Positions 32,485 through 45,263 are shown, counted from the first letter of the stretch. The stretch: DNA of 64,000 nt from Bacteroidota bacterium (GCA_030682255.1 JAUXOK010000009.1:50428-114427); one strand, 5' to 3'. Program-made: numbers and translations. The notes: generated from the sequence alone by a model not told the origin.

Positions 32485-33819
32485 TTATTCTAGTATTTTT
32501 GGTATTTCCAAATATGATGTCCATATGGTTCCATTTATTATGTCTTCAAGCATAATTTGGTTATCGATTTTCATTTCGTGCCATCTGTTATGCCAAGATT
32601 GCCAGGCATGCCATGAATAACCCTTATAAAGTTTTTTACTAGAGTAACTAAATGAATACTTTGCTATTTCACAAAAATCCATTTCAAATTCTGTACCTTT
32701 AATTTTAATAATTGAAGCGATTTCAATTAACCAGTCTGCAAGATGTTCATATTGTGTCCATGCATTATTTTCTCTTGTGAATTGCAGCTTTTTATCCAGT
32801 AGTGACATTAAAGTTTTTATAAAAACCTTGTCTTTACTTTCAATACCCAAACTAGCAGCTTGAAGTAGAATCGTGGTCAGCGACACCTTCAATTTCAGAA
32901 AGTCATCGGTGTAATAATGTGATCCCGCCATTACATCTTTTAAATTTTCAACTGAATCAATAAGATCCTTTGCTTTTTCATACTTGGCGTCAACTTTGTC
33001 AAAGAACAAATCAGTTGGTGTGTTTTGTATGACTTTAATACCATATGTAACTGAATAGAATTTTTCTATAACATCAGGAATTGTGTCACGAGTTATGTAG
33101 TATAAATCTGTTCTTCTAAACGATTCATTTTTTGAATTTTTCACTTCATTAAGAATCGAATTTAGATTGAAATCACCTAATGAGTAACCTAAAATTGCAA
33201 CTGTAGTCTCTTGCAGAAGAGTGAAAAATTTTCTTGAAAAATAGTTATTAGAGTTTTGGAAGTTGTAATAATCATTTATTGTCAATATTATGCTTTCAGG
33301 TCTATTTACTGAGCCATGTATATGATAAATATTTTGACCTGAGTTAAGTCTTGGAATTATACTGCCTTCAATTACTATTCGACTTGTAATCGGAATTACA
33401 AAATCTGAAAAAATTGTATCATAGTTTGTTGTTACTATATTTATATTGGGGTGAGTTGAGAAGAACGCTTGTAGGTGTTCTAGTTTTTCCTTATCAATTG
33501 TTTTTTCGTTTATTCTTGCTTTGATTATTTTGGCTATCTGTACTTTAATATTTTTTCTCTTTTTTAAGTATTCACTTTCTAAGATTTGAGCACAAATAGT
33601 TAAGTCGTAAATAGCTTCTTTAACTTTGCCTGAAGAATCTGTGTTAAATAATTGGTTTAGTAGTTTGTCTTCTTTGTCTATAACAATAGTGCAGTCTACA
33701 AGCAATTCTAGCCAATTAGGAGCTTTGCCATTGGTCATATACTTACTAAATCCTGTGCCAACAAAAAGTGTCAAGGAGTTAGTATGTAAAGATGTCGCTA
33801 TGTCTAAGTAGTCACTCAT
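32485..33819 (-). CDS. SIR2_2-family (ThsA-like) putative NAD+ hydrolase with uncharacterised helical C-terminal domain
   Basis: LFVGTGFS (Rossmann Gly loop), VTTNYD, IYHIHGS (catalytic His) and VAILGYSLGDFNLNSIL align motif-for-motif with the ThsA SIR2 domain (IFAGAGLS, TTNYD, KMHGD, FVGFSFTDPNLDYIL). C-terminal ~170 aa are W/H-rich and helical, and do not look like SLOG. Confidence 0.75.
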   Translation of the reverse strand: MSDYLDIATSLHTNSLTLFVGTGFSKYMTNGKAPNWLELLVDCTIVIDKEDKLLNQLFNTDSSGKVKEAIYDLTICAQILESEYLKKRKNIKVQIAKIIKARINEKTIDKEKLEHLQAFFSTHPNINIVTTNYDTIFSDFVIPITSRIVIEGSIIPRLNSGQNIYHIHGSVNRPESIILTINDYYNFQNSNNYFSRKFFTLLQETTVAILGYSLGDFNLNSILNEVKNSKNESFRRTDLYYITRDTIPDVIEKFYSVTYGIKVIQNTPTDLFFDKVDAKYEKAKDLIDSVENLKDVMAGSHYYTDDFLKLKVSLTTILLQAASLGIESKDKVFIKTLMSLLDKKLQFTRENNAWTQYEHLADWLIEIASIIKIKGTEFEMDFCEIAKYSFSYSSKKLYKGYSWHAWQSWHNRWHEMKIDNQIMLEDIINGTIWTSYLEIPKILE

Positions 33820-33870
33820 ATAATTGCACCCAACATATTTATTTAAGATTTTTTTATTAAATGTATAGTG

Positions 33871-34839
33871 TTATTTTTTAGCTTTTATAATTGCTTTTAC
33901 TTTCTCTTTCCAATTTCCTCTATGCTCAACTCTTATAAATTGGTCGCTTGGTCTGTTTTGTATATCTAACCTACTTAATCTACTTAATTCTCTCCAATTT
34001 TCAAATAATATATATAGAGCATTTCCATAATTTGAATTTTCAAATGCAACAAGACTTTCTGAAAATTTTACACCAAAATATCTACGCATTCCGCTATTGC
34101 CAATAATTGTTTGTATAGGGTTTTCGCTTCTTAAAAATGAATACCTATCAATAATTTCATTTGCTCTTTGAGGTGTTATATTTCTTAAACCATTTGTTAT
34201 TTTTGAAAGATCTTGATCCATTGTACCTGGGGGGAAGATTTCCCAATTTAACTGCAATGTTTGTAGATATTCATCAATAGAAGTATTACTATTATAAACA
34301 TTTACTGATCCAATATTTTCTTGAAGAAGATTAATGTTAAAAAAAAGTTCTTCTATAAAATTATTGGCATTTTTATTTAATATTTGATTAGTACTGAATT
34401 TCAAACTATGAAATATTACGCCATCCTCATCAGTAGTTTCTAAATGTTCTACACAAATTGAAATCTCTTTTGGGGGTATTACATCATAAGGAGTAACCAT
34501 CCTAGTTACATAAAGAGAAAAAGAACCTTTATTAAAATCTCCGAAAATTGCTCTTTCTCCTAAATAATAGGTTTTCGACACTTTTGGTCTATCAGGGTAT
34601 CGAATTTTATACCCTTTTACATTTTTCCTGCTAAAACTACCATTTGTGAATAAAGGAACAAATTCATCAATAAAGTTGAGTTCCCCATTATTTAAATTAA
34701 GGTTAATTTGTGAATAAAACTCATTATCAAAATCGTCATTAGTGATTTTTTTAATTGTTGCAATTGTAACATCATCGCTTTCAATATTATCTAATTGTTG
34801 TAGGATAAATTCTGGAGTTTTTCTGAAGTTTTTTCTCAT
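33871..34839 (-). CDS. uncharacterised 322-aa protein, first gene of the SIR2 operon
   Basis: Clean ORF 51 nt upstream of the SIR2 gene on the same strand. No TM segment, no signal peptide, no Walker, TIR, HNH or PD-ExK motif that I can recognise. Confidence 0.6.
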   Translation of the reverse strand: MRKNFRKTPEFILQQLDNIESDDVTIATIKKITNDDFDNEFYSQINLNLNNGELNFIDEFVPLFTNGSFSRKNVKGYKIRYPDRPKVSKTYYLGERAIFGDFNKGSFSLYVTRMVTPYDVIPPKEISICVEHLETTDEDGVIFHSLKFSTNQILNKNANNFIEELFFNINLLQENIGSVNVYNSNTSIDEYLQTLQLNWEIFPPGTMDQDLSKITNGLRNITPQRANEIIDRYSFLRSENPIQTIIGNSGMRRYFGVKFSESLVAFENSNYGNALYILFENWRELSRLSRLDIQNRPSDQFIRVEHRGNWKEKVKAIIKAKK

Positions 34840-35025: not shown

Positions 35026-35101
35026 TTCCCGCATGTAAACTGCGTGTGGTTTTATACTATTATCAAATAACCATTAACTTCCCGCAGTTTACATGCGGGA
35101 A
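35026..35101. repeat. perfect 19-bp inverted repeat with 38-nt spacer
   Basis: TTCCCGCATGTAAACTGCG (35026-35044) and CGCAGTTTACATGCGGGAA (35083-35101). The right arm can also fold on itself (TTCCCGCA/TGCGGGAA). Confidence 0.8.
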
Positions 35102-35106
35102 ACCAT

Positions 35107-36126
35107 CTACTCAGGCGTTAACTCAAAATTGAATACCCCACTGCCTTCGGGGGTTAAAGCCACAATGGAGGCAAACGGCTGAAAGCCCATTGCCATAATG
35201 TTGACATTGGCAGATTCATCTGCTGTGATGGCAATGTCCAACGTGTATTCACCAAGTGGGTTGGTGTTGGTCATTAACGGCCCAATCGTGGTATTGAACG
35301 TTAACATGGCATCACCAATTGGTGTAGCACCAACAGCACTGGTAACTACACCTGAAATGGTGTATGGTGTTGGGTCGGGGTCGGGATTTGGTAAACTGGT
35401 GTTTACAACAAAGCCCCATTCCGACAAGGTTTGTTCATTGCCTTTGTAAATGCCCTGCAAAACATCCCTAACGGCTCTCACATAGTTTGCCAATGTACCT
35501 TTGGTTTTGCTGCTTTGGGTTTTGGCTCTGCCCATAGCCAAATTGCGATCTTGTAAAGCTTTTTCCTTATCGCCTTTTAGTTTTTCGGCTAATACGGTTT
35601 GGGTATCTGCAATGGTAAGCAAACTGTTAAATGCCGTCATATCAAAAGGTGTTAAAATGGAGCTTACACCATCTGCTGTGTCTTTGGCACTTATTTTTTT
35701 AGCCAATTTCAACAACTCTGTAGCTTTGCGTGGTATCAACACATTGATGTCTTTATCCTTTTTTCTGTTGACCACAAAACCCCAATCGCCCAATGTTTTT
35801 TCTGAGCCTTTGTTTACACCAAGCAGAAAATCTCGAATACCTGACACAAAATACAAAACGGTATTGGGTGTGTAGGATGATTGTGTGTCTGCCAATCCCA
35901 AGGCTAAATCGCGGTCTTCTATCGCTTTTTCTTTATCTAATGCCAATTGTTCCGATTCATCGTGTTTGGTTTTGGCAATGGTATTTTTGGCTATCATATC
36001 AGCCATGTTGATACCATTGAGTATGCTGCTTACACCGTCTAAGGTGTGTTTATTAACTATGTCGTTCGACAAGGTGAGAAATTCATCCACATTTTGTGGA
36101 ATGATAACTCTAAAATTATTTTTCAT
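35107..36126 (-). CDS. hypothetical protein with tandem ~115-aa internal duplication and C-terminal CarboxypepD_reg/Ig-like beta domain
   Basis: Repeat 1 (LDGVSSILNG ... LGDWGFVVN) and repeat 2 (ADGVSSILTP ... LSEWGFVVN) are clearly homologous. A PNPDPDPTP linker follows, then ISGVVTS ... GEYTL, a beta-sandwich-like tail. Visibly higher GC than the neighbouring genes. Confidence 0.6.
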   Translation of the reverse strand: MKNNFRVIIPQNVDEFLTLSNDIVNKHTLDGVSSILNGINMADMIAKNTIAKTKHDESEQLALDKEKAIEDRDLALGLADTQSSYTPNTVLYFVSGIRDFLLGVNKGSEKTLGDWGFVVNRKKDKDINVLIPRKATELLKLAKKISAKDTADGVSSILTPFDMTAFNSLLTIADTQTVLAEKLKGDKEKALQDRNLAMGRAKTQSSKTKGTLANYVRAVRDVLQGIYKGNEQTLSEWGFVVNTSLPNPDPDPTPYTISGVVTSAVGATPIGDAMLTFNTTIGPLMTNTNPLGEYTLDIAITADESANVNIMAMGFQPFASIVALTPEGSGVFNFELTPE

Positions 36127-36531
36127 ATTAGAAATATTATATGGTTTGTGTTGAATAATTAGGGATTCAACTTTCCCTGTTGGATGCCTTTTGCGCCCTG
36201 TATCAGAATACCTGTTAGATAGGCTGATGTGTTTTTTAATGGTACTTGTGCGACTTCAAGTTTTCATAAAATTTGAGGTCTATGCGCAAGGGGGTTCTCT
36301 GGCAAATGGGGCTTTAAAATAACCTTTTAAAGCTTTGTAGTTTGAGTTTTGATATGGCCTGATTTGGCTCGAGGTGAAATAAAGCACATCCATTTTTTTG
36401 GGTGTGTTTGGCATTGTTTTATATTTCCTTTTGATTTTACTGCAATGATTTACCAAACCCATCCAATTGTTTCTTGAACGATTTAGCTTGTTTTTCAAAG
36501 CAATAGACACTTTCATGGTGTCGTAATACCC

Positions 36532-37017
36532 ATTTATTGAGGCATAAGACTCATTTATCGCAGTGTGAAAATGATTGTTGCATGTTTGGCAATCATTTAT
36601 TGAGGTGTCAATTTGATTTATTGAGGTCTGGAAACCATTTATTGAAGTCAAGAAATGATTGTTTGAGGTCTTGGAATGATTTATTGAAGTGTCTACCTGA
36701 TTTATTGAAGATTTCGAGGTATTTATGGGCGTATGGACAAACCTTATTGAAGTCCATAAATGAGTGTTATAAGCCATTAAATGAGGGCTAGAAGCGAATA
36801 AATCATATCCAGGAGCGAATAAATGAGGGGTTGAAGCGAATAAATCATTTCTACGAGTGAATAAATGAGGAGTAGAAGCCAACAAATCATTTCTTCGAGC
36901 CAATAAAAGAGAGTTAGGAGTGAATAAATCATGTCTAAGGCTCAACATAAAAAAACTTGGTTCCAATAAATGGCACTTAGAAGTGGATATCACAGGTTTT
37001 GAAGCCAATAAATGAGG
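36532..37017. repeat. 21-bp-phased array of ~24 units in two inverted arms (iteron-like)
   Basis: Arm 1 core ATTTATTGA(G/A)G starts at 36532, 36553, 36574 ... 36742 (every 21 bp). Arm 2 core AATAAAT(G/C)A starts at 36755, 36776 ... 36965 and 37007 (every 21 bp, with the 36986 slot degenerate). The cores are reverse-complement related (SATTTATT). Each unit has ~11 conserved plus ~10 variable nt. Confidence 0.85.
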
Positions 37018-37542
37018 GGATGAATCAGTTTGATATTGGCTGTTATTGATGGCAATTGCCCCACAAACAAAAAGCAATGTTGAAAGACTCAACATTGCTT
37101 TTCTACAATTTAATACGAAGGTTTTTGTTAAACACCATATGATAACCCTGCGAAACATAACAACATAACTCTTATATAGACACATTTATTGTATGAGATG
37201 CTGCATTTTTTTAAAAAAAAAGATGAGATATTTGTTTTGGGGGATGAATTTGAATTAAAAAACCGCTTCTTGCATTTGTGAAAACTTTTTCGTTTGTTTG
37301 TAGAAACTAAAATGAAGAGATGAAGATAATAAAATCAAAAATATATTTTCGAAATACAATCAACAATCAAGGTAATCATAATATATTTAACTTTAACCAA
37401 AATCCTAGTTGCTATGGAAATAACTCTTGTCAACTGAATTTCATTTTCAAAACCGTCTTATCTTATTCAAAATATAATTTATGATTACCCAAAAAACAAT
37501 GTTTTTTTCTTTTGATAAAATTATAGTAACTACTAATAACTT

Positions 37543-40500
37543 ATGAGTGCAGACAATCCAATATTAAATAGTCCTTATCTAGAACCTTTGCTACATTATA
37601 ACACAGACAGCGAAGGCAGTTTGGACTATACGGATATTCGCAAGGGACGAAGAATATTTAAAGCGGATTCCGCAGTTATTCCCACTAGACAAACGGGTCA
37701 AAGGGAAGTTTTTGAATGGAACGAAGATGCAGGCGAATATTTAACACATATCATCAACCTTTGCAGAAAAGAAGTAGGGCAATGGCGTGCAGCCAATTAC
37801 CCAAATACAACAAGAGTTACAAAAGAACTATTGACTTTTTGGTTTAACAATCCTGAAAGACTTATAACAAAAAAACTATTCTTTGCTCAACAAGAAGCTG
37901 TTGAAACCGCTATTTGGATAAATGAAGTTGCCGAGAAATCAAACGCAGGTCAACACATTTTAAACTTACTTCGCAACGGACAACACACAGTTAGTGATGA
38001 CACAGCAGACCAACTTCCGAGAATTGCTTTTAAAATGGCGACAGGTTCGGGCAAGACAGTTGTTATGGCTTGTTTAATTTGTTATCACTATTTCAACAGA
38101 CAAGAATACAGAAACGACACCCGATTTGCCGATTATTTTTTAATTGTTGCACCTGGCGTTACAATCAAAAGCAGATTAGGTGTTTTGTTCGTAGATACGA
38201 AAAACAAAAATCCAAAAGACATTGAAGATTATTACCGTGTTCGTGGGCTAATTCCTGCTAATATGGAACATCGTTTGGAAAATCTAAATGCAAGACTTGT
38301 CATTACCAATTACCACACATTTGAACCTAAAATTTTACAAGGCAATAAACGCAGTCCTTTTGATGGCAAAGTAGATTTACAAGGCAAGAAAATTGACACA
38401 GGGAACAAAGAAGATTTTTCGCAAGTAGTGAAACGTACTTTGGCGAAATTCAAAGCAGGAAGCAGAGTATTGATTCTAAATGACGAAGCACATCACTGCT
38501 ATTTACCAAAATCAAAAAGCAAAACAACTGACAATGAAGAAGCAGACGAAAACGCAAGAGCAGCCGTTTGGTTTAGCGGACTACGTGAAATTGCAAAGAA
38601 ATTCAAACTACAATCGGTTTATGATTTATCGGCAACACCATATTATTTGACAGGCTCGGGTTATACACCTTACAGTTTATTTCCTTGGGTAGTTTCTGAC
38701 TTTGGCTTAATAGAAGCGATTGAAAGCGGCTTAGTAAAAATTCCTTTCTTGCCAGAAAGCGACAACACACAAGAATTGACAATGCCAGTCTTGCGTAATT
38801 TGTACGACCACGTTAAAGATGAGCTTCCCAAAAAAGGATTAACTAAACGAAAAGCAGAAGCAAAAGCAGAAGGCAAAATATTTCAAGAAGAATTACCAAG
38901 GATTCCTTCACTGGTAAAAGGCGCATTAGACCAATTTTACAATCACTATGTTGAGTATTATAATGGCATAAGAAAACACAAAGAACAAAAAGCAAATATT
39001 TTTTCAGCTCCACCTGTATTTATCGTAGTATGTAATAATGTTTCTGTTTCAAAAGAAGTTTATAAGTATGTTGCGGGTTTTGAATACAATAACGAGGATG
39101 GAACATCAACAACAACAGTTCAAGGGGCAAAAGATTTGTTCAGCAATTACGACCCTGCTACAAATAAACCTTTGAAACGACCGCCAACATTGCTTATTGA
39201 CAGCGATGCATTGGAAAACGGAGAGCAAATAAATGACGATTTCAAAAAAATATTTTCTTCGGAAATAGAAGAATTTAAAAAAGACTATGCCCGAATGTAT
39301 GGGCAAGGAAGCACCGACAAAATTTCGGATGCTGAAATTCTTCGTGAAGTAGTAAACACAGTTGGACAGCAAGGAAAATTAGGTTCACACATTCGTTGTG
39401 TGGTTTCTGTATCTATGCTCACAGAAGGTTGGGATGCTAACACAGTAACACATATAATGGGTTTACGTGCCTTCGGTTCTCAATTGCTTTGTGAGCAAGT
39501 GGCAGGTAGAGCTTTGCGGAGAATGAGTTATCATTTGCAAGGTTATGATAAAGATGGAAACCCAACTGACGACAAACGCAAAATCGTAATCGAAAAATTT
39601 CCACCTGAATATGCTCACATCATAGGTGTTCCATTCAAAATGTTTAAAGGCGGAAAAACCGAACCGCCACCGCCACCAGTTGACTTAACACACATTGCTT
39701 CTATTCCAGACAGACAAGCAGCTATGGAAATTGATTTTCCAAATGTGGTTGGCTATCGAGTTGAAAACTTAGATGGTGATATAAAACACGATTTCAGCAA
39801 TATTGAAAACTATGAAATTTTCGGAATGCCAACAGTTACAGAAATGGCAAGTCCAATTTCTCCCAATAAAGAAATATTGGAAGTAAAAGGTGTATTGGAA
39901 AAACGTGACCAAGAATTAATTTTCCTTATCACCAAAGAACTTATTAAATACCATTTTAGCGATGAAGAAGGAAACCCACGTTTCCAAAAATTCAATAAGC
40001 TAAAAAGCATTGTGGAAGAATGGTACAACAAAAAAGTAATAGTTCTAAATCTTGAACCACAGTTTAGGAAACTACTTTATTTTGAAGACCCTAAAAAAAT
40101 AGTTGACCATATTGCCCGTGGTATCAATCCACAAAACAATACCACCGAACATATTCGACCTGTGTTTAACTATTACAACAAGTTTAGCAGCACAAAATAT
40201 GTAAATGGTAATACTGTAAAAGATGTTTACCCAACCGAAAAAAGCCACGTGAATTATGTGGTGATGGATAGCGATTGGGAAGGTATTTGTGCCAAAACTT
40301 TAGAAGAAATTAGCACAGTAGAATCGTATGTAAAAAATCAATTCTTAGGTTTTGCCATTCCTTATACTAAAGACGGAAAAGACAGACAATACTTCACCGA
40401 TTTTATTGCACGAGTAAAAAGCAAAGACGGTACTATCAAAAACTTGATGATAGAAATAAGCGGAATGAGTAAAGACAAAGCAGAAAAAAAATGGTTTGTT

Positions 40501-40632
40501 GAAAATCGTTGGATACCTGCTGTAAATGCTTTGAAAGAAAAATACGAATATCCCGAATGGCATTTTATTGAAATTGCAAACGATATTCGAAACATCAAAA
40601 ATCAATTAATCGAAAAAATCCAGAGTATATGA
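37543..40632 (+). CDS. res: Type III-like restriction enzyme Res subunit (SF2 helicase plus C-terminal nuclease-like region)
   Basis: Walker [13 protein letters not shown] box LNDEAHHC, motif III SATPY, motifs [12 protein letters not shown] ... [10 protein letters not shown]-terminal FTDF ... [11 protein letters not shown] is compatible with a PD-(D/E)xK-like core. Confidence 0.8.
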
Positions 40633-40964
40633 AAATAGAATGGACAGATTGGAGACCAATGCCCTCACCTGATAATTGCAAAGAAATTATTGGGCCAGAT
40701 GGTCCAGGTGTTTATCAAATAAGAAATAAAAATACAGATGAATTCATTCAATTTGGGGAAAGCAAAACCTGTCAATACAGAATGAAATCACTTTATCCAA
40801 AGCCATTTGGTATTGGAACAAGAAACAATGAAAGTAAAAGATTATATATTCTAAATAATTGGAAATTTCTAGAGTATAGAACAGCCAAAACAAACAGTAA
40901 AGAGGATGCTGTAAAAATAGATAGATACTTAAAATCATTAAACAACCATAAATTTAACACATAA
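40629..40964 (+). CDS. small GIY-YIG-like protein (tentative)
   Basis: 111 aa. GVYQI then EFIQFGES about 10 residues later, then R (QYRMKS), E (LEYR) and a terminal N, following the GIY...YIG...R...E...N spacing. ATGA overlap with the res stop. Confidence 0.4.
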
Positions 40965-40968
40965 AAAC

Positions 40969-42684
40969 ATGTCATTTCAACCATCAAGAACCGAGACAAT
41001 TAAAACACTTTTTCACGGAAATAGATTTATTATTCCAGCCTACCAACGCAAATATTCTTGGAAATTTGACCAACGAAAAGCACTTTGGGACGATATAGGT
41101 GAAAACCTTACCATGAAGCACTTTATTGGCACACTTTGCTTTAAGAAAGTTGAAAATAGTACAGATGTTTTTTCGGATGTGTATGAAATTATTGATGGCC
41201 AACAACGCACTACAACTTTATTTATTTTATTAAATGTATTAATTGAAAAAATTACTAGTGATGAATTAAAGAATGGTTTTATTAACCTATATATAGGTTC
41301 GAAGGAAACACCAAAATTAGCGTCACTGGGAGTTGATCAAGATTTTTTGAACAATGTAATATTTGATTTTACAAGTATTATGGAAGACAAATTAATTGTT
41401 AGAAGTCAAATAAACCTATATGAAGCAAAAAAAGACTTTATAGGTTTATGTTCAAAATTTAGTCAAAAAGATATCGTTGACTGGATAACTTTTATTAGTA
41501 CAAACATTGAGATTCTTATTTTTAATGTTACACATCAAGCAGAAGCAGTAAAAATGTTTTCTGTTATAAATGATAGGGGGTTACCTTTATCAAACTTAGA
41601 TAAAACTAAGAGTTTATTAATGTTATATAGTACTCTTTATCTGAATGAAGAAATAAATGAAGAAATAAACACCAAATTTGGCGACATTTTCGACTCTTTC
41701 GATGAAATGGTTTTTCTTAAAAACAAGTTAAGTCTTTTTAGAACTTTAGATGATTATGATTTTGAAAACACCTTCTATACCCACTATTATTATACGGCTA
41801 AATGGCTTTTCCCTGATTGGGACTATCAACTTGGAGCTGACAATATCTTTAAACAACTTAAAAAATTGTGTGAAGAATCAAAAACAAATGTAGTTGATTT
41901 AAGATGGAACATTGAGGAATATGTGCGAGATTTTCATGGCTTTGCCTTGGCATATGTAGCACTATTAAGAAAAGTTGATCAAGATAAAAACTATCAAAAG
42001 TATTTTTTATATATGGAGTTTGCAGCAACATTATATCCATTGCTTGTTCGATTGCACGAGCAGAAGAAACTGGATGGTTTGCTTCGCATTATAGAAGTTG
42101 TAGAAATGCGTGTATATAAATTAAAAAACACCAATCCAAGAAGAAATATGTATTTCCTTTCTTCAAATATTATTGAGGAAGAATGGACAATTGAAGAAAT
42201 AGAAACAGAACTAACCAACTTTGTCAACAATTTTTGTAACGACTATTTTACAGAACAATACTTACTAGATCAGGTCGATAATAAGACATCTTTAGTGAGA
42301 TATACTTTATATAAACAAAATCTTGAAACTCACGGCCAAGATTTAACATTAGACGAATTTCGCAATCTGCAAGTCGAACATATCTTTAGTGTAAGTCCTA
42401 ATTTTGCAATCAAACAGTATGGTTTCGGTAAACATGAAACTTATAATTTAGAAATTGCAAAAATTGGAAACTTAACAATTTTGGAAAAGGCTATAAATAA
42501 AGATGTAAATAATATGGCTCCCACAGATAAGTTAAGTGGTTATCAAAAATCTAAAATAAATTTGAATAGTAATTTAATGGGTAATCTAAATAAATTTAAT
42601 AAAGAAGAAATTGCAAATAGAACCAATGAAATAATCGAATTCTTTATGAGTGAATTTTATATAACTGAAGAAACAACATCATAA
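40969..42684 (+). CDS. DUF262 + DUF1524 protein (GmrSD-like type IV restriction enzyme family)
   Basis: N-terminal [10 protein letters not shown] and [10 protein letters not shown] (DUF262 ParB-like NTPase). C-terminal [11 protein letters not shown] ... [13 protein letters not shown] (DUF1524 His-Me finger). Confidence 0.8.
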
Positions 42685-42689
42685 ATACT

Positions 42690-45263
42690 ATGGCAAAGAA
42701 AGTTGAATCAATAAAACACAAAACCGATACCCGTGCCCACATTCCGAGTAAGGAAGAAGCAGGTTACGAAGATGCCAATGCCAAAGTGCAAGACGGAAAA
42801 AAGGTTTTAGAACTTCCTAAAAACCCTGTGGTGCATCGTGGACAAGACCCTGAATTGTTTTGGAAGAACAAATACGGCAATGACGACCGTGACGATTTGC
42901 TTCGGGTGGACATACGTAGCCTATACCGCCACGAACACATTGCACCCGAAACGCTGATAAAAAACTTATACAACGTAACCGAAACCAAAAGCGACCAAAT
43001 GGATTTGTTTAGTGTTAACGAACTTTTTGGTAATGCTTTGGATAAAGATGAAATAGAAAAAGTAAGCGAATATTACCACCATCAAGATGGCTGGACAAAC
43101 CGACTTATACAAGGCGATAGCCATTTGGTAATGGCAAGTTTATTAGAGAGAGAAGGTATGGCAGGGCAAGTACAAACATTTTATTTCGACCCACCTTATG
43201 GAATTAAATACGGTGGCAACTGGCAAATAAAATTGAACAACCGTGATGTAAAAGATGGAAATGATGAAGCATTGACGGGTGAACCTGAACAGATAAAAGC
43301 ATTTAGAGATACTTGGGAATTAGGTATCCATTCCTATTTAGGATATTTAAGGGATAGATTAATCATTGCAAAAGAAATGCTTACTGAAAGTGGTTCTTGC
43401 TTCATTCAAATTTCTGATGAAAATGTTCATTTGGTAAGAAATATAATGGATGAAGTTTTTGGAAGTGAAAATTTTTGCAATATGATTTCCTTCCAAAAAA
43501 CAGGAAGTATAGCTAGCAATGGACTAGGCACTACTGTTGATTACATAATTTGGTATTCAAAGGATAAATCGAAATTAAAATACAGACAACTTTATTTGCC
43601 ACGAAAGGCAGGACATCCATCTCTGGACAGGTATGATTATGTTGAATTACCAGATGGAAATATTTTTAAACTTACAATAGATTATATAAGGGGAGAAAAA
43701 GAAATACCAGAAGGTAAAAGGTTTGGATATACTCCTTTAATTTCGGATGGTGCTTCCAAGGAAAGCAAACCGTTCGTGTTTAATGGTGAAACATTTTACA
43801 CACCAGCTAATAAACATTGGAAAACCGACCCAGCTATTGGTGGTGAACGTTTGATTAAAAAAGGGAGAATTGCAAAAGTTGGCAATCAATTATGGTACAA
43901 AAGATATGTTGATGATTTTCCAATGATACCAATAAATGATAGATGGGAAAGTATTCAAATTGGAACAGGGTTGTTATATGTTGTACAAACTGCTGCTGAA
44001 ATTGTCAAACGCTGCATTCTAATGACTACTGACCCAGGCGATTTGGTTTTAGACCCTACGTGTGGTAGTGGTACTTCTGCTTTTGTTGCAGAACAATTTG
44101 GAAGAAGATGGATAACAATAGACACAAGTAGAATTGCCTTGAACATTGCCAAGCAACGTTTGATGACAGCCGTTTTTCCTTATTATACATTGCACGATAC
44201 ATTAAATTCGGATATACGCCAAGGTTTCAACTACAAAGAAGTTCCTCACATAATGTTAAAGGACATTGCTAATAATGAGCCATCTGAAAGTGAAAAATTA
44301 TATGACCTTCCAATTGAAGACAAAAAGTTACTTCGTGTAAGTGGCCCATTCACTGTTGAAACCTTACAAAACTTTGAGCCAATAAGCCCCGAAGCTTTGG
44401 ACGATGAAGTAAGAGTAAATGAAGAAGAAGGAGCGTTTGAAGAAGTAATCAAACAACACCTTATAAGTGCAGGAATTAAAAACGGAAGAAAAGATGAAAT
44501 GGTGGTTTTAAAACCTGACATACGTTCATTGAATAGTGAAACCTTGCATTTGGAAGGTTTCTATCAAACCGAAAAAGGAGAACAAAAAGTCTATATCCAC
44601 ATTGGTCCTAAATTTGGAACAGTAAGTAAAAAACAAGCAAACGATGCAATAAAAGAATGCAGATTAAGGGGAGATGCTCAATGGTTAGTTATACTTGGTT
44701 TTAGTTTTGAAAGCGATATTGAAGGCAGCAGCCAAACAACTAGTATGGGTAATTTCAAAGTAGATAAAGTTCGTATTCACGATGATTTGTTACAGGAAGG
44801 TTTGAAAAAGAAACCAGCCAAGTCAGCAGCCAGCTTTGTAACCATTGGCGAACCCGATATTGACCTAAACATTAAAGGCAAAGAAGCAATTGTTGAAATA
44901 AAAGGCTTAGACATTTACGACCCAATCAAAGACGAAGTAAAACCTAGGAATGTTCACGACATTGCTTATTGGATGGTGGACGAAGATTATGACGGTAGCA
45001 ACTTTGTAGTTAAACAAGTTTTCTTCTGTGGTGGCGAAAAATCTGAATTTGATAAATGGAAAAAAGGTTTATACAACCTAGCCAAAGACAGTACCAAAAA
45101 GAAAGTAGAGAAAACATTAAAAATTGAAATAGACGATGAAGCATTCGACCGTTTGTATGGACACATTTCTCATCCAATAGAAATCAAAAAGAAAGGACAA
45201 AAAATTGCTGTTAGAATCATCAGTCAATTTGGTGAAGAATGTACAAAGGTTTTAACTGCGTAA
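42690..45263 (+). CDS. mod: beta-class N6-adenine/N4-cytosine DNA methyltransferase (Type III Mod-like) with ~370-aa C-terminal extension
   Basis: Motif [10 protein letters not shown] precedes motif [26 protein letters not shown], separated by ~280 aa (TRD position as in Type III Mod). Confidence 0.8.

Follow-up and report, generated by a model that had tools for sequence, protein, structure and literature searches.

A 21-bp-phased, two-armed DNA array lies upstream of a family of unannotated genes in Bacteroidota and Verrucomicrobiota

In the genome of a Bacteroidota bacterium (GCA_030682255.1), a strictly periodic array of 21-bp units occupies part of a 1.4-kb gap between a minus-strand gene encoding a 339-aa protein (36126-35107) and a divergent Type III restriction helicase gene that begins at 37543, raising the question of whether such an array acts as DNA, as RNA or as coding sequence. 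All coordinates are counted from the start of the window, which is the whole stretch of 64,000 nt that was analysed (JAUXOK010000009.1:50428-114427). The array is a real and highly non-random element: lag-21 identity, computed over segments of 168 nt, reaches 0.63 within it, whereas it averages 0.30 +/- 0.05 across the 64 kb and nowhere else exceeds 0.45. For the array itself, identity is 0.55 at lag 21 and 0.62 at lag 42. The surroundings (32485-34839 and 37543-45263) constitute a defence island. It includes an SIR2_2 protein, which is ThsA-like and has PDC-S25 as its best PADLOC match, together with a 322-aa upstream partner that has no annotation; the Type III res and mod genes, of which the restriction helicase shows a hint of a TnsA-like C-terminus; GmrSD and N6/N4 methylase genes; and an ORF of 111 aa, likewise unannotated. 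No match to the 322-aa protein was found in PADLOC, PHROGs or NCBIfam.

Stacking of the sequence in rows of 21 nt resolved 24 units in a strict single register (36532-37035), with no shift at the junction between two arms. Rows 1 to 11 consist of ATTTATTGARG or decayed forms of it, and rows 12 to 24 of AATAAAT followed in turn by GAGG or CAT. The gene-proximal arm (36532-36762; 11 x 21 bp) has ATTTATTGARG as its plus-strand core, usually with AT[GC] before it. Six of the 11 units have the core intact and the other five a degenerate form; exact copies of this core are confined to the array within the 64-kb window, and each unit of the arm contains an imperfect dyad, TCA-N5-TGA. The gene-distal arm (36763-37035; 13 x 21 bp) is oppositely oriented, with AATAAAT[GC]A as its plus-strand core, and alternation of GAGG-type and CAT-type units gives it a 42-bp super-period. 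Tandem Repeats Finder reported arrays of period 21 and 42 (36551-36708 and 36749-36937) and also a period of 84, with 80% matches for the 42-bp super-period of the distal arm. When orientation was assigned unit by unit, its direction switched once (>>>>>>>>>>> then <<<<<); the arms are inverted relative to one another and meet near 36750-36763. The first-pass annotation, which described 11 proximal units and a distal GAGG/CAT alternation at exact 21-bp spacing in two inverted arms converging at about 36750, is borne out by the register stack, Tandem Repeats Finder and the lone orientation switch, as far as its units go; it missed approximately six decayed units in the same register (36406-36531), which carry the array down to ~36406 in the direction of the 339-aa gene, with lag-21 signal from ~36394. 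Because 21 bp corresponds to two helical turns, all units lie on one face of the duplex, and because the arms are inverted, the array as a whole has one dyad axis.

Related genomes were examined for the same arrangement by comparing, for each homologue of the 339-aa gene, lag-21 identity over the 1.1-1.3 kb that precede its start codon with that in the remainder of the locus. A periodic array of 21 or 42 bp is located directly upstream of the homologue in 24 of 24 distinct loci with upstream DNA (L021-L023, L024/L027, L025/L029, L028, L030-L035, L037-L040, L042, L045-L047, L049, L050 and L051, where L027 is a duplicate of L024 and L029 of L025). The linked arrays are 180-590 bp long and end 11-470 nt before the ATG; their lag-21 maxima are 0.48-0.83, compared to 0.46 or less elsewhere in the same loci. 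They include those of L021 (Verrucomicrobiae), L022 and L023 (a 97%-identical relative of the window), of eleven further distinct Saprospiraceae or Bacteroidota loci, of five independent loci encoding single-domain proteins (L042, L045, L046, L047, L049) and of two metagenome loci (L050, L051). The array-linked loci are spread over Saprospiraceae, other Bacteroidota, Verrucomicrobiae and a GC-rich lineage, and over at least two phyla.

The sequence of the unit is lineage-specific in these 24 loci, and the period is always 21 or 42 bp. Unit types include TCA-N5-TGA in the window and in Saprospiraceae, ATCATATGAT in L031, ATGAA-AG-TTCAT in L039, GGAAA-NN-TTTCC in Verrucomicrobiae and TTTCAAACTCCATTATCTCAT in L050. 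Internal dyad symmetry is common among the units across lineages, as is typical of sites for dimeric binders, and one orientation switch, producing two inverted arms, is found in at least 13 of 22 arrays and also in L050. No clear pattern relates the number of protein domains to a 21- or 42-bp period, and the identity of the proteins and that of the units follow only a loose trend that is inseparable from phylogeny. The neighbours of the module vary among loci, and therefore the array and the gene, which is the sole gene linked to arrays throughout, make up the entire conserved unit. Relatives of the module are found beside Type I restriction-modification genes (L023) and beside a NACHT/pentapeptide STAND protein (L025). 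The loci are chromosomal, some on contigs of 250-650 kb (up to 654 kb), and several genomes have two copies. The array is very likely a non-coding DNA element with a functional tie to the family of the 339-aa gene. Both the element and the gene family appear to be undescribed, and a literature search on chromosomal arrays phased at 21 bp turned up no account of the element. An earlier suggestion that the neighbouring 339-aa protein is involved holds for linkage, at 24 of 24 loci, and it is linkage alone that speaks for binding.

Arrays of this period were also encountered outside the family. A second family, of ~204-aa proteins (P0174-P0187) that are helical at the N-terminus and FN3-like at the C-terminus, has a 21-bp array directly upstream in two of two loci (L010 1335-2528; L052 2117-3115), and the L010 unit has ATTTATTGAAG in common with the array of the window. 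Comparison of the two families by hhalign gave a probability of 11%, which is not significant, with G..E..L.DYG of one aligned to G.E..LGDWGF of the other; judged from these sequences, either remote homology or convergence would be possible. The array principle may be broader than one family, considering the similar order of a helical N-terminus and an FN3-like C-terminus in the second family and the arrays at both of its loci. A scan of genomes with the motif only returned chiefly chance single matches, plus a few unrelated 21-bp arrays. Arrays of 21 bp with an FIE-type motif and no adjoining family gene (L006 5881-6070, L008 5997-6298, L014 7064-7490, L018 1233-1449) were observed in Sphingobacterium hungaricum, a Chitinophagaceae MAG (three copies) and an uncultured Bacteroidetes MAG. 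A pair of convergent genes flanks one of these arrays, and another lies upstream of a gene resembling glycyl-tRNA synthetase; several of their frames are open throughout, inviting false gene calls. Further tandem repeats, whose periods are 75 and 237 bp (scores of 237 and 845), adjoin the Chitinophagaceae array at L010 2915-3609.

The product of the linked gene (35107-36126, minus strand, with the array on its 5' side) comprises two tandem four-helix domains of ~120 aa and a C-terminal beta-sandwich that is transthyretin-like or CarboxypepD_reg-like. AlphaFold2 models, with pLDDT of 88 for the full protein and 93 for a single domain, have four helices per domain, framed in the full-length model by short terminal strands. 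Both helical domains are 42-44% identical to a single-domain protein of Verrucomicrobiae. The beta-sandwich is the sole part with matches, to CarboxypepD_reg in Pfam (weakly) and to transthyretin-like folds in the PDB, and it dominated the fold search with the full model. The helical domain alone had no match in the PDB by Foldseek (best E 8.5), a profile of it found nothing among PDB sequences, and Pfam, NCBIfam, PHROG and PADLOC yielded no assignment for the helical-domain family; exact-protein lookup of the 339-aa protein, P0003 and P0004 returned no record. A profile search of 1.84 billion representatives gathered 827 clusters at E<=1e-3 and 141 at E<=1e-30. Members have one domain (~130 aa), two domains (~255 aa) or an extended form (~340-430 aa). 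The one- and two-domain forms have a median core pI of ~9, and [ST]P[KR] is present in the tail of 15 of 50 short forms. The long forms, including the 339-aa protein of the window, are acidic overall, with beta-sandwich C-termini of a kind more typical of structural or surface proteins, and do not resemble a classical regulator. One contig of DNA run X1 joins 35563 to 35932, omitting 368 nt, almost exactly one 123-aa domain, and differs at 15 positions on one side of the junction and at 5 on the other, which points to a coexisting paralogue or variant with one domain fewer; this suggests that domain number changes through recombination between tandem domains.

The 339-aa gene is monocistronic and is under strong constraint relative to L023 (dN/dS 0.10, with 5, 5 and 34 changes at the three codon positions). 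It was found in two groundwater metatranscriptomes, in contigs that span 35101-36383 at word depths of 64-87. Its depth in metatranscriptome X4 is ~87 for a 4%-divergent strain and ~20 for an identical strain, compared to 3-14 for pckA of the window, and this expression is unusually high for an unannotated gene. One X4 contig (36043-36383, depth 64) extends the transcript upstream of the coding sequence, defining a transcribed 5' leader of 257 nt (36127-36383, minus strand), and ends there. The contig end is 149 nt from the first clear unit and falls inside the decayed units; since these reach the 5' end of the transcript contig, the promoter of the gene is probably located within them (36406-36531). 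No convincing TAnnTTTG or sigma-54 motif was seen by eye upstream of the gene, and a scan for sigma-70-type promoters gave fewer hits than shuffled sequences and was thus uninformative for what is likely a Bacteroidota promoter.

On the other side of the array lies a conserved block (37021-37196, minus strand) with only 3 differences from L023 in 176 nt (1.7%). It contains a hairpin with a 14-bp stem (37070-37083 / 37089-37102), followed on the minus strand by the T-run TTTTTGTTTGT, and it could be an insulating terminator, a small RNA or a REP-like element. Similarity between the window and L023 ceases at ~37205-37250, which is taken as the distal edge of the module. A 52-nt contig of DNA run X1 matches 37058-37109 at about double depth, indicating that the hairpin is repeated elsewhere in the same community or genome.

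A minus-strand ORF of 301 aa (36280-37185), composed of TSINxxx and DLFASTPHLF repeats and 134 non-repeat codons, remains open across the array and is very probably not a gene. In most arrays, stops interrupt each of the three sense frames. The peptides of open frames are unrelated among the window, L045 and L050 (TSINxxx in the window, FKLHYLI/LLEFTNE in L050), though the downstream proteins of the window and L050 are 50% identical. Substitutions between the window and L023 give a dN/dS of 0.53 for the ORF, with near-even changes at the codon positions, and of 0.62 and 1.15 for the other two frames, in contrast to the constrained pattern of the 339-aa gene. The codon-usage score of the ORF is 0.11, below that of every real gene in the window (minimum 0.23), Pfam and PHROGs contain no homologues of it, and the transcripts do not span it. 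We regard it as highly unlikely that the ORF is translated in the lineage of the window as a heptad-repeat protein co-expressed with the 339-aa gene, even though the 301-codon frame is still open in L023 despite 48 substitutions in the array (60 across the ORF), and L045 and L046 have same-strand ORFs that abut the gene. The sense frame of the window's array has no stops where 4.1 are expected from column shuffles of the units (P=0.002); this result is a caution rather than evidence of translation, because six frames were tested and the locus was chosen partly for its ORF. The first-pass annotation had favoured a phased array of DNA sites over a coding repeat and had attributed the open frame to the equivalence of 21 bp and seven codons, and an ORF that is unconserved, under relaxed constraint and devoid of RNA contigs agrees with it on both points. 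Gene callers do place spurious ORFs on such arrays (292 aa in L023, 140 aa in L045, 137 aa in L046, and 87 aa in antisense in L041-L044), and a filter for 21-bp periodicity would strip them from annotation.

A second possibility is that the array is transcribed from either strand and acts as RNA, its arms pairing into an extended imperfect hairpin that the cell would sense or process, or its repeats titrating an RNA-binding protein; a variant of this reading is that a divergent plus-strand transcript could end at the hairpin at 37070-37102. Predicted folding energies are below those of shuffled sequences on both strands of 8 arrays (z from -2.6 to -10.9), a terminator-like hairpin that would serve both directions is present at the distal edge, and in L042, L045 and L046 the array ends only 11-60 nt before the ATG, so that part of it may be 5' UTR there. 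Stronger folding than in shuffles on both strands is, however, what inverted repeats must give; folding energy does not consistently favour either strand, and the inverted-repeat pairs of the window share no common axis. Rfam had no matches in the entire window. The comparison of the window with L023, which has low power because it involves two sequences, revealed 0 compensatory changes, against 19-22 predicted pairs broken and 4-9 kept through a one-sided change. With no Rfam match and no compensatory change between these two sequences, a described structured RNA was rejected as a candidate. RNA contigs end at 36383 and none maps to 36408-37400 even at 80% likeness, a result that in contig data cannot prove non-transcription; words of the array were in no RNA run, and words of the gene were in two. 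Because a rapidly processed RNA would be compatible with contig data, the RNA reading keeps a low weight, and we consider it quite unlikely.

Relative to L023, divergence is 9.5% in the array, 14.4% at synonymous sites of the gene, 3-5% in the leader and proximal flank and 1.7% in the distal block. Within the array, 23 substitutions fall in the 11-nt block of the unit that had been described as conserved and 25 in the 10-nt block described as variable; thus, the division into blocks stands as a pattern of similarity within the array and fails as one of greater conservation between strains. With changes spread evenly over both blocks and a rate of about two thirds of the synonymous rate, constraint per unit is weak, as redundancy among 24-30 sites would allow. 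No indels were found across the 504-bp array relative to L023 or in the DNA metagenomes X1 and X2, and this stability of unit number argues against slipped-strand phase variation. A contingency locus was rejected on the constant repeat number in L023 (at 9.5% divergence), X1 and X2. A CRISPR array, in which repeats of 23-50 nt alternate with unique spacers, was also rejected: the unit here is only 21 bp, its variable 10 nt are related among units and there are no cas genes.

Weak constraint per unit is compatible with a role for DNA mechanics without a dedicated binder, in which curvature, cruciform extrusion or positioning of a plectoneme tip would make a strong promoter sensitive to supercoiling, or phased FIS-like sites would load generic nucleoid proteins. 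An exact two-turn period common across phyla while the sequence is free to vary, the dyad symmetry of the arrays and the strong expression of the gene are also in keeping with such a role. Predicted intrinsic curvature of the array in the window is unexceptional, at the 89th-96th percentile (an approximate figure from a Trifonov wedge model with a small-angle sum), and the units of each array hold a specific, often palindromic core that pure mechanics would not need. FIS and other nucleoid proteins bind helically phased sites upstream of strong stable-RNA promoters, which they boost or tune; such promoters have 3-5 loosely defined sites that are not tied to one protein family, whereas the array described here is a 500-bp tandem array with lineage-specific units. 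A purely mechanical role is fairly improbable.

The first-pass annotation likened the array to plasmid iterons and parC-type centromeres. Iterons of F, P1, R6K and pPS10 are repeats of 17-22 bp spaced by approximately two helical turns and bound by Rep initiators, which have two tandem domains of ~120 aa, and extra iteron arrays serve as sites of control and autorepression. In type II centromeres (R1, pB171, pSK41), two phased blocks of parC repeats flank or overlap the promoter of the operon of their binder, ParR, which binds cooperatively to form a one-sided, curved or helical segrosome and autoregulates. The geometry of the array resembles that of directly repeated 17-22-bp iterons, its 24 units in a 21-bp register being phased at about two turns, and that of promoter-overlapping parC and parS arrays. 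The array abuts the putative promoter of the linked gene, which may encode a binder; the module also occurs in variable defence-island settings, with neighbours that differ between the window and L023. It could thus be imagined as the replication origin or partition centromere of an integrated mobile element. The annotation itself had remarked that no rep or par gene is adjacent, and in agreement with this, no gene for Rep, ParA, ParM or TubZ was found at any locus. Neighbours compared with Pfam and NCBIfam included no winged-helix Rep, to which the module has no homology and whose fold the helical domain does not match in the PDB; no operon with an NTPase partner (ParA, ParM or TubZ) was found among the varying neighbours; and origin features are absent. 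Arrays on chromosomal contigs of hundreds of kilobases, with two copies in several genomes, do not resemble a plasmid, phage or secondary replicon. Neither 72,556 plasmids nor 50,697 phages yielded a tblastn match to the 339-aa protein, and viral contigs scanned with the Saprospiraceae alignment gave none either. The array has far more units than iterons and two inverted arms, and it differs likewise from parC, whose 4-10 direct repeats of 10-20 bp are plasmid-borne with the ParM actin-like NTPase in the operon. A replication or partition function is therefore extremely improbable; the earlier DNA-level reading is right in spirit, and its specific analogies are wrong.

We prefer to read the array as a dyad-symmetric set of helically phased binding sites for a protein, overlapping the promoter of the downstream gene and controlling it through cooperative binding, and we put the probability of this reading at roughly 45%. 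The module would be ordered from the distal block and its hairpin through the two inverted arms, the promoter in the decayed units and the 257-nt leader to the gene. A sequence-specific protein would bind cooperatively, with one or two subunits per unit, and the bound array would become either an extended nucleoprotein filament on one side of the DNA or a structure folded back and bridged; reaching into the promoter, it would set how strongly the highly transcribed gene is expressed. Speculatively, the DNA might fold back at the dyad, placing equivalent sites of the two arms opposite each other for a two-domain or dimeric binder to bridge. The best candidate for the binder is the product of the gene itself, which would then autoregulate, since it is the sole component conserved with the array; the family comes with one or two tandem domains, and its short forms are mildly basic, often with tails rich in S/T-P-K/R. 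The binding protein, its identity and its transcriptional effect are what we infer here. The period of two helical turns throughout the phyla, the dyad cores, the inverted arms, the reach toward the promoter, the linkage to one family and the strong expression would be accounted for jointly, and most simply, by proteins bound cooperatively along one face of the DNA and controlling the promoter beside them, following the logic of omega/parS, ParR/parC and Rep/iteron. The cooperative repressor array that the first-pass annotation also mentioned is, as a candidate, the best guess at the mechanism.

In its working, the array would be most like phased operator and centromere arrays. In the parS/operator heptads of plasmid pSM19035, 7-10 contiguous direct or inverted repeats overlap promoters and are bound cooperatively by the ribbon-helix-helix repressor omega, one dimer per repeat, in an unbroken nucleoprotein filament that acts both in repression and in the organisation of DNA (PMC3074150). 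That system has ~7-10 units of 7 bp, is plasmid-borne with a ParA partner (delta) and uses a binder of 71 residues, whereas the array described here has 24-30 units of 21 bp and is linked to a protein with a four-helix domain that, unlike omega, has no known fold relative. Against the proposed mechanism are the helical domain, which has no recognisable DNA-binding fold or PDB neighbour, the weak constraint per unit and the paucity of stops in the sense frame of the window (0 against 4.1, P=0.002). The acidity and beta-sandwich of the long forms, which are unlike those of a classical regulator, are the reason for assigning it no higher a probability.

A more far-reaching proposal is that these loci represent an unrecognised, self-contained chromosomal module of Bacteroidota, Verrucomicrobiota and beyond, in which a protein of new fold polymerises on the inverted arms or bridges them, making a folded-back nucleoprotein body of ~0.5 kb with a purpose beyond autoregulation; such a body might, for example, sense supercoiling or nucleoid state, serve as a mark for architecture or segregation, or be a DNA structure associated with defence islands. 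This proposal is conceivable, and we hold it to be doubtful.

The linkage of the array to these genes is the first functional handle on more than 800 sequence clusters that lack any annotation. In groundwater, the sole environment for which RNA data were available, the family is transcribed well above a central metabolic gene. If the protein coats the array, it would have a new DNA-recognition fold and an unusually large and strict operator, with 12-30 sites, an exact two-turn period and dyad-related arms; the arrangement, being shared across phyla, would then be a natural system in which to follow the assembly of cooperative filaments or bridges on DNA.
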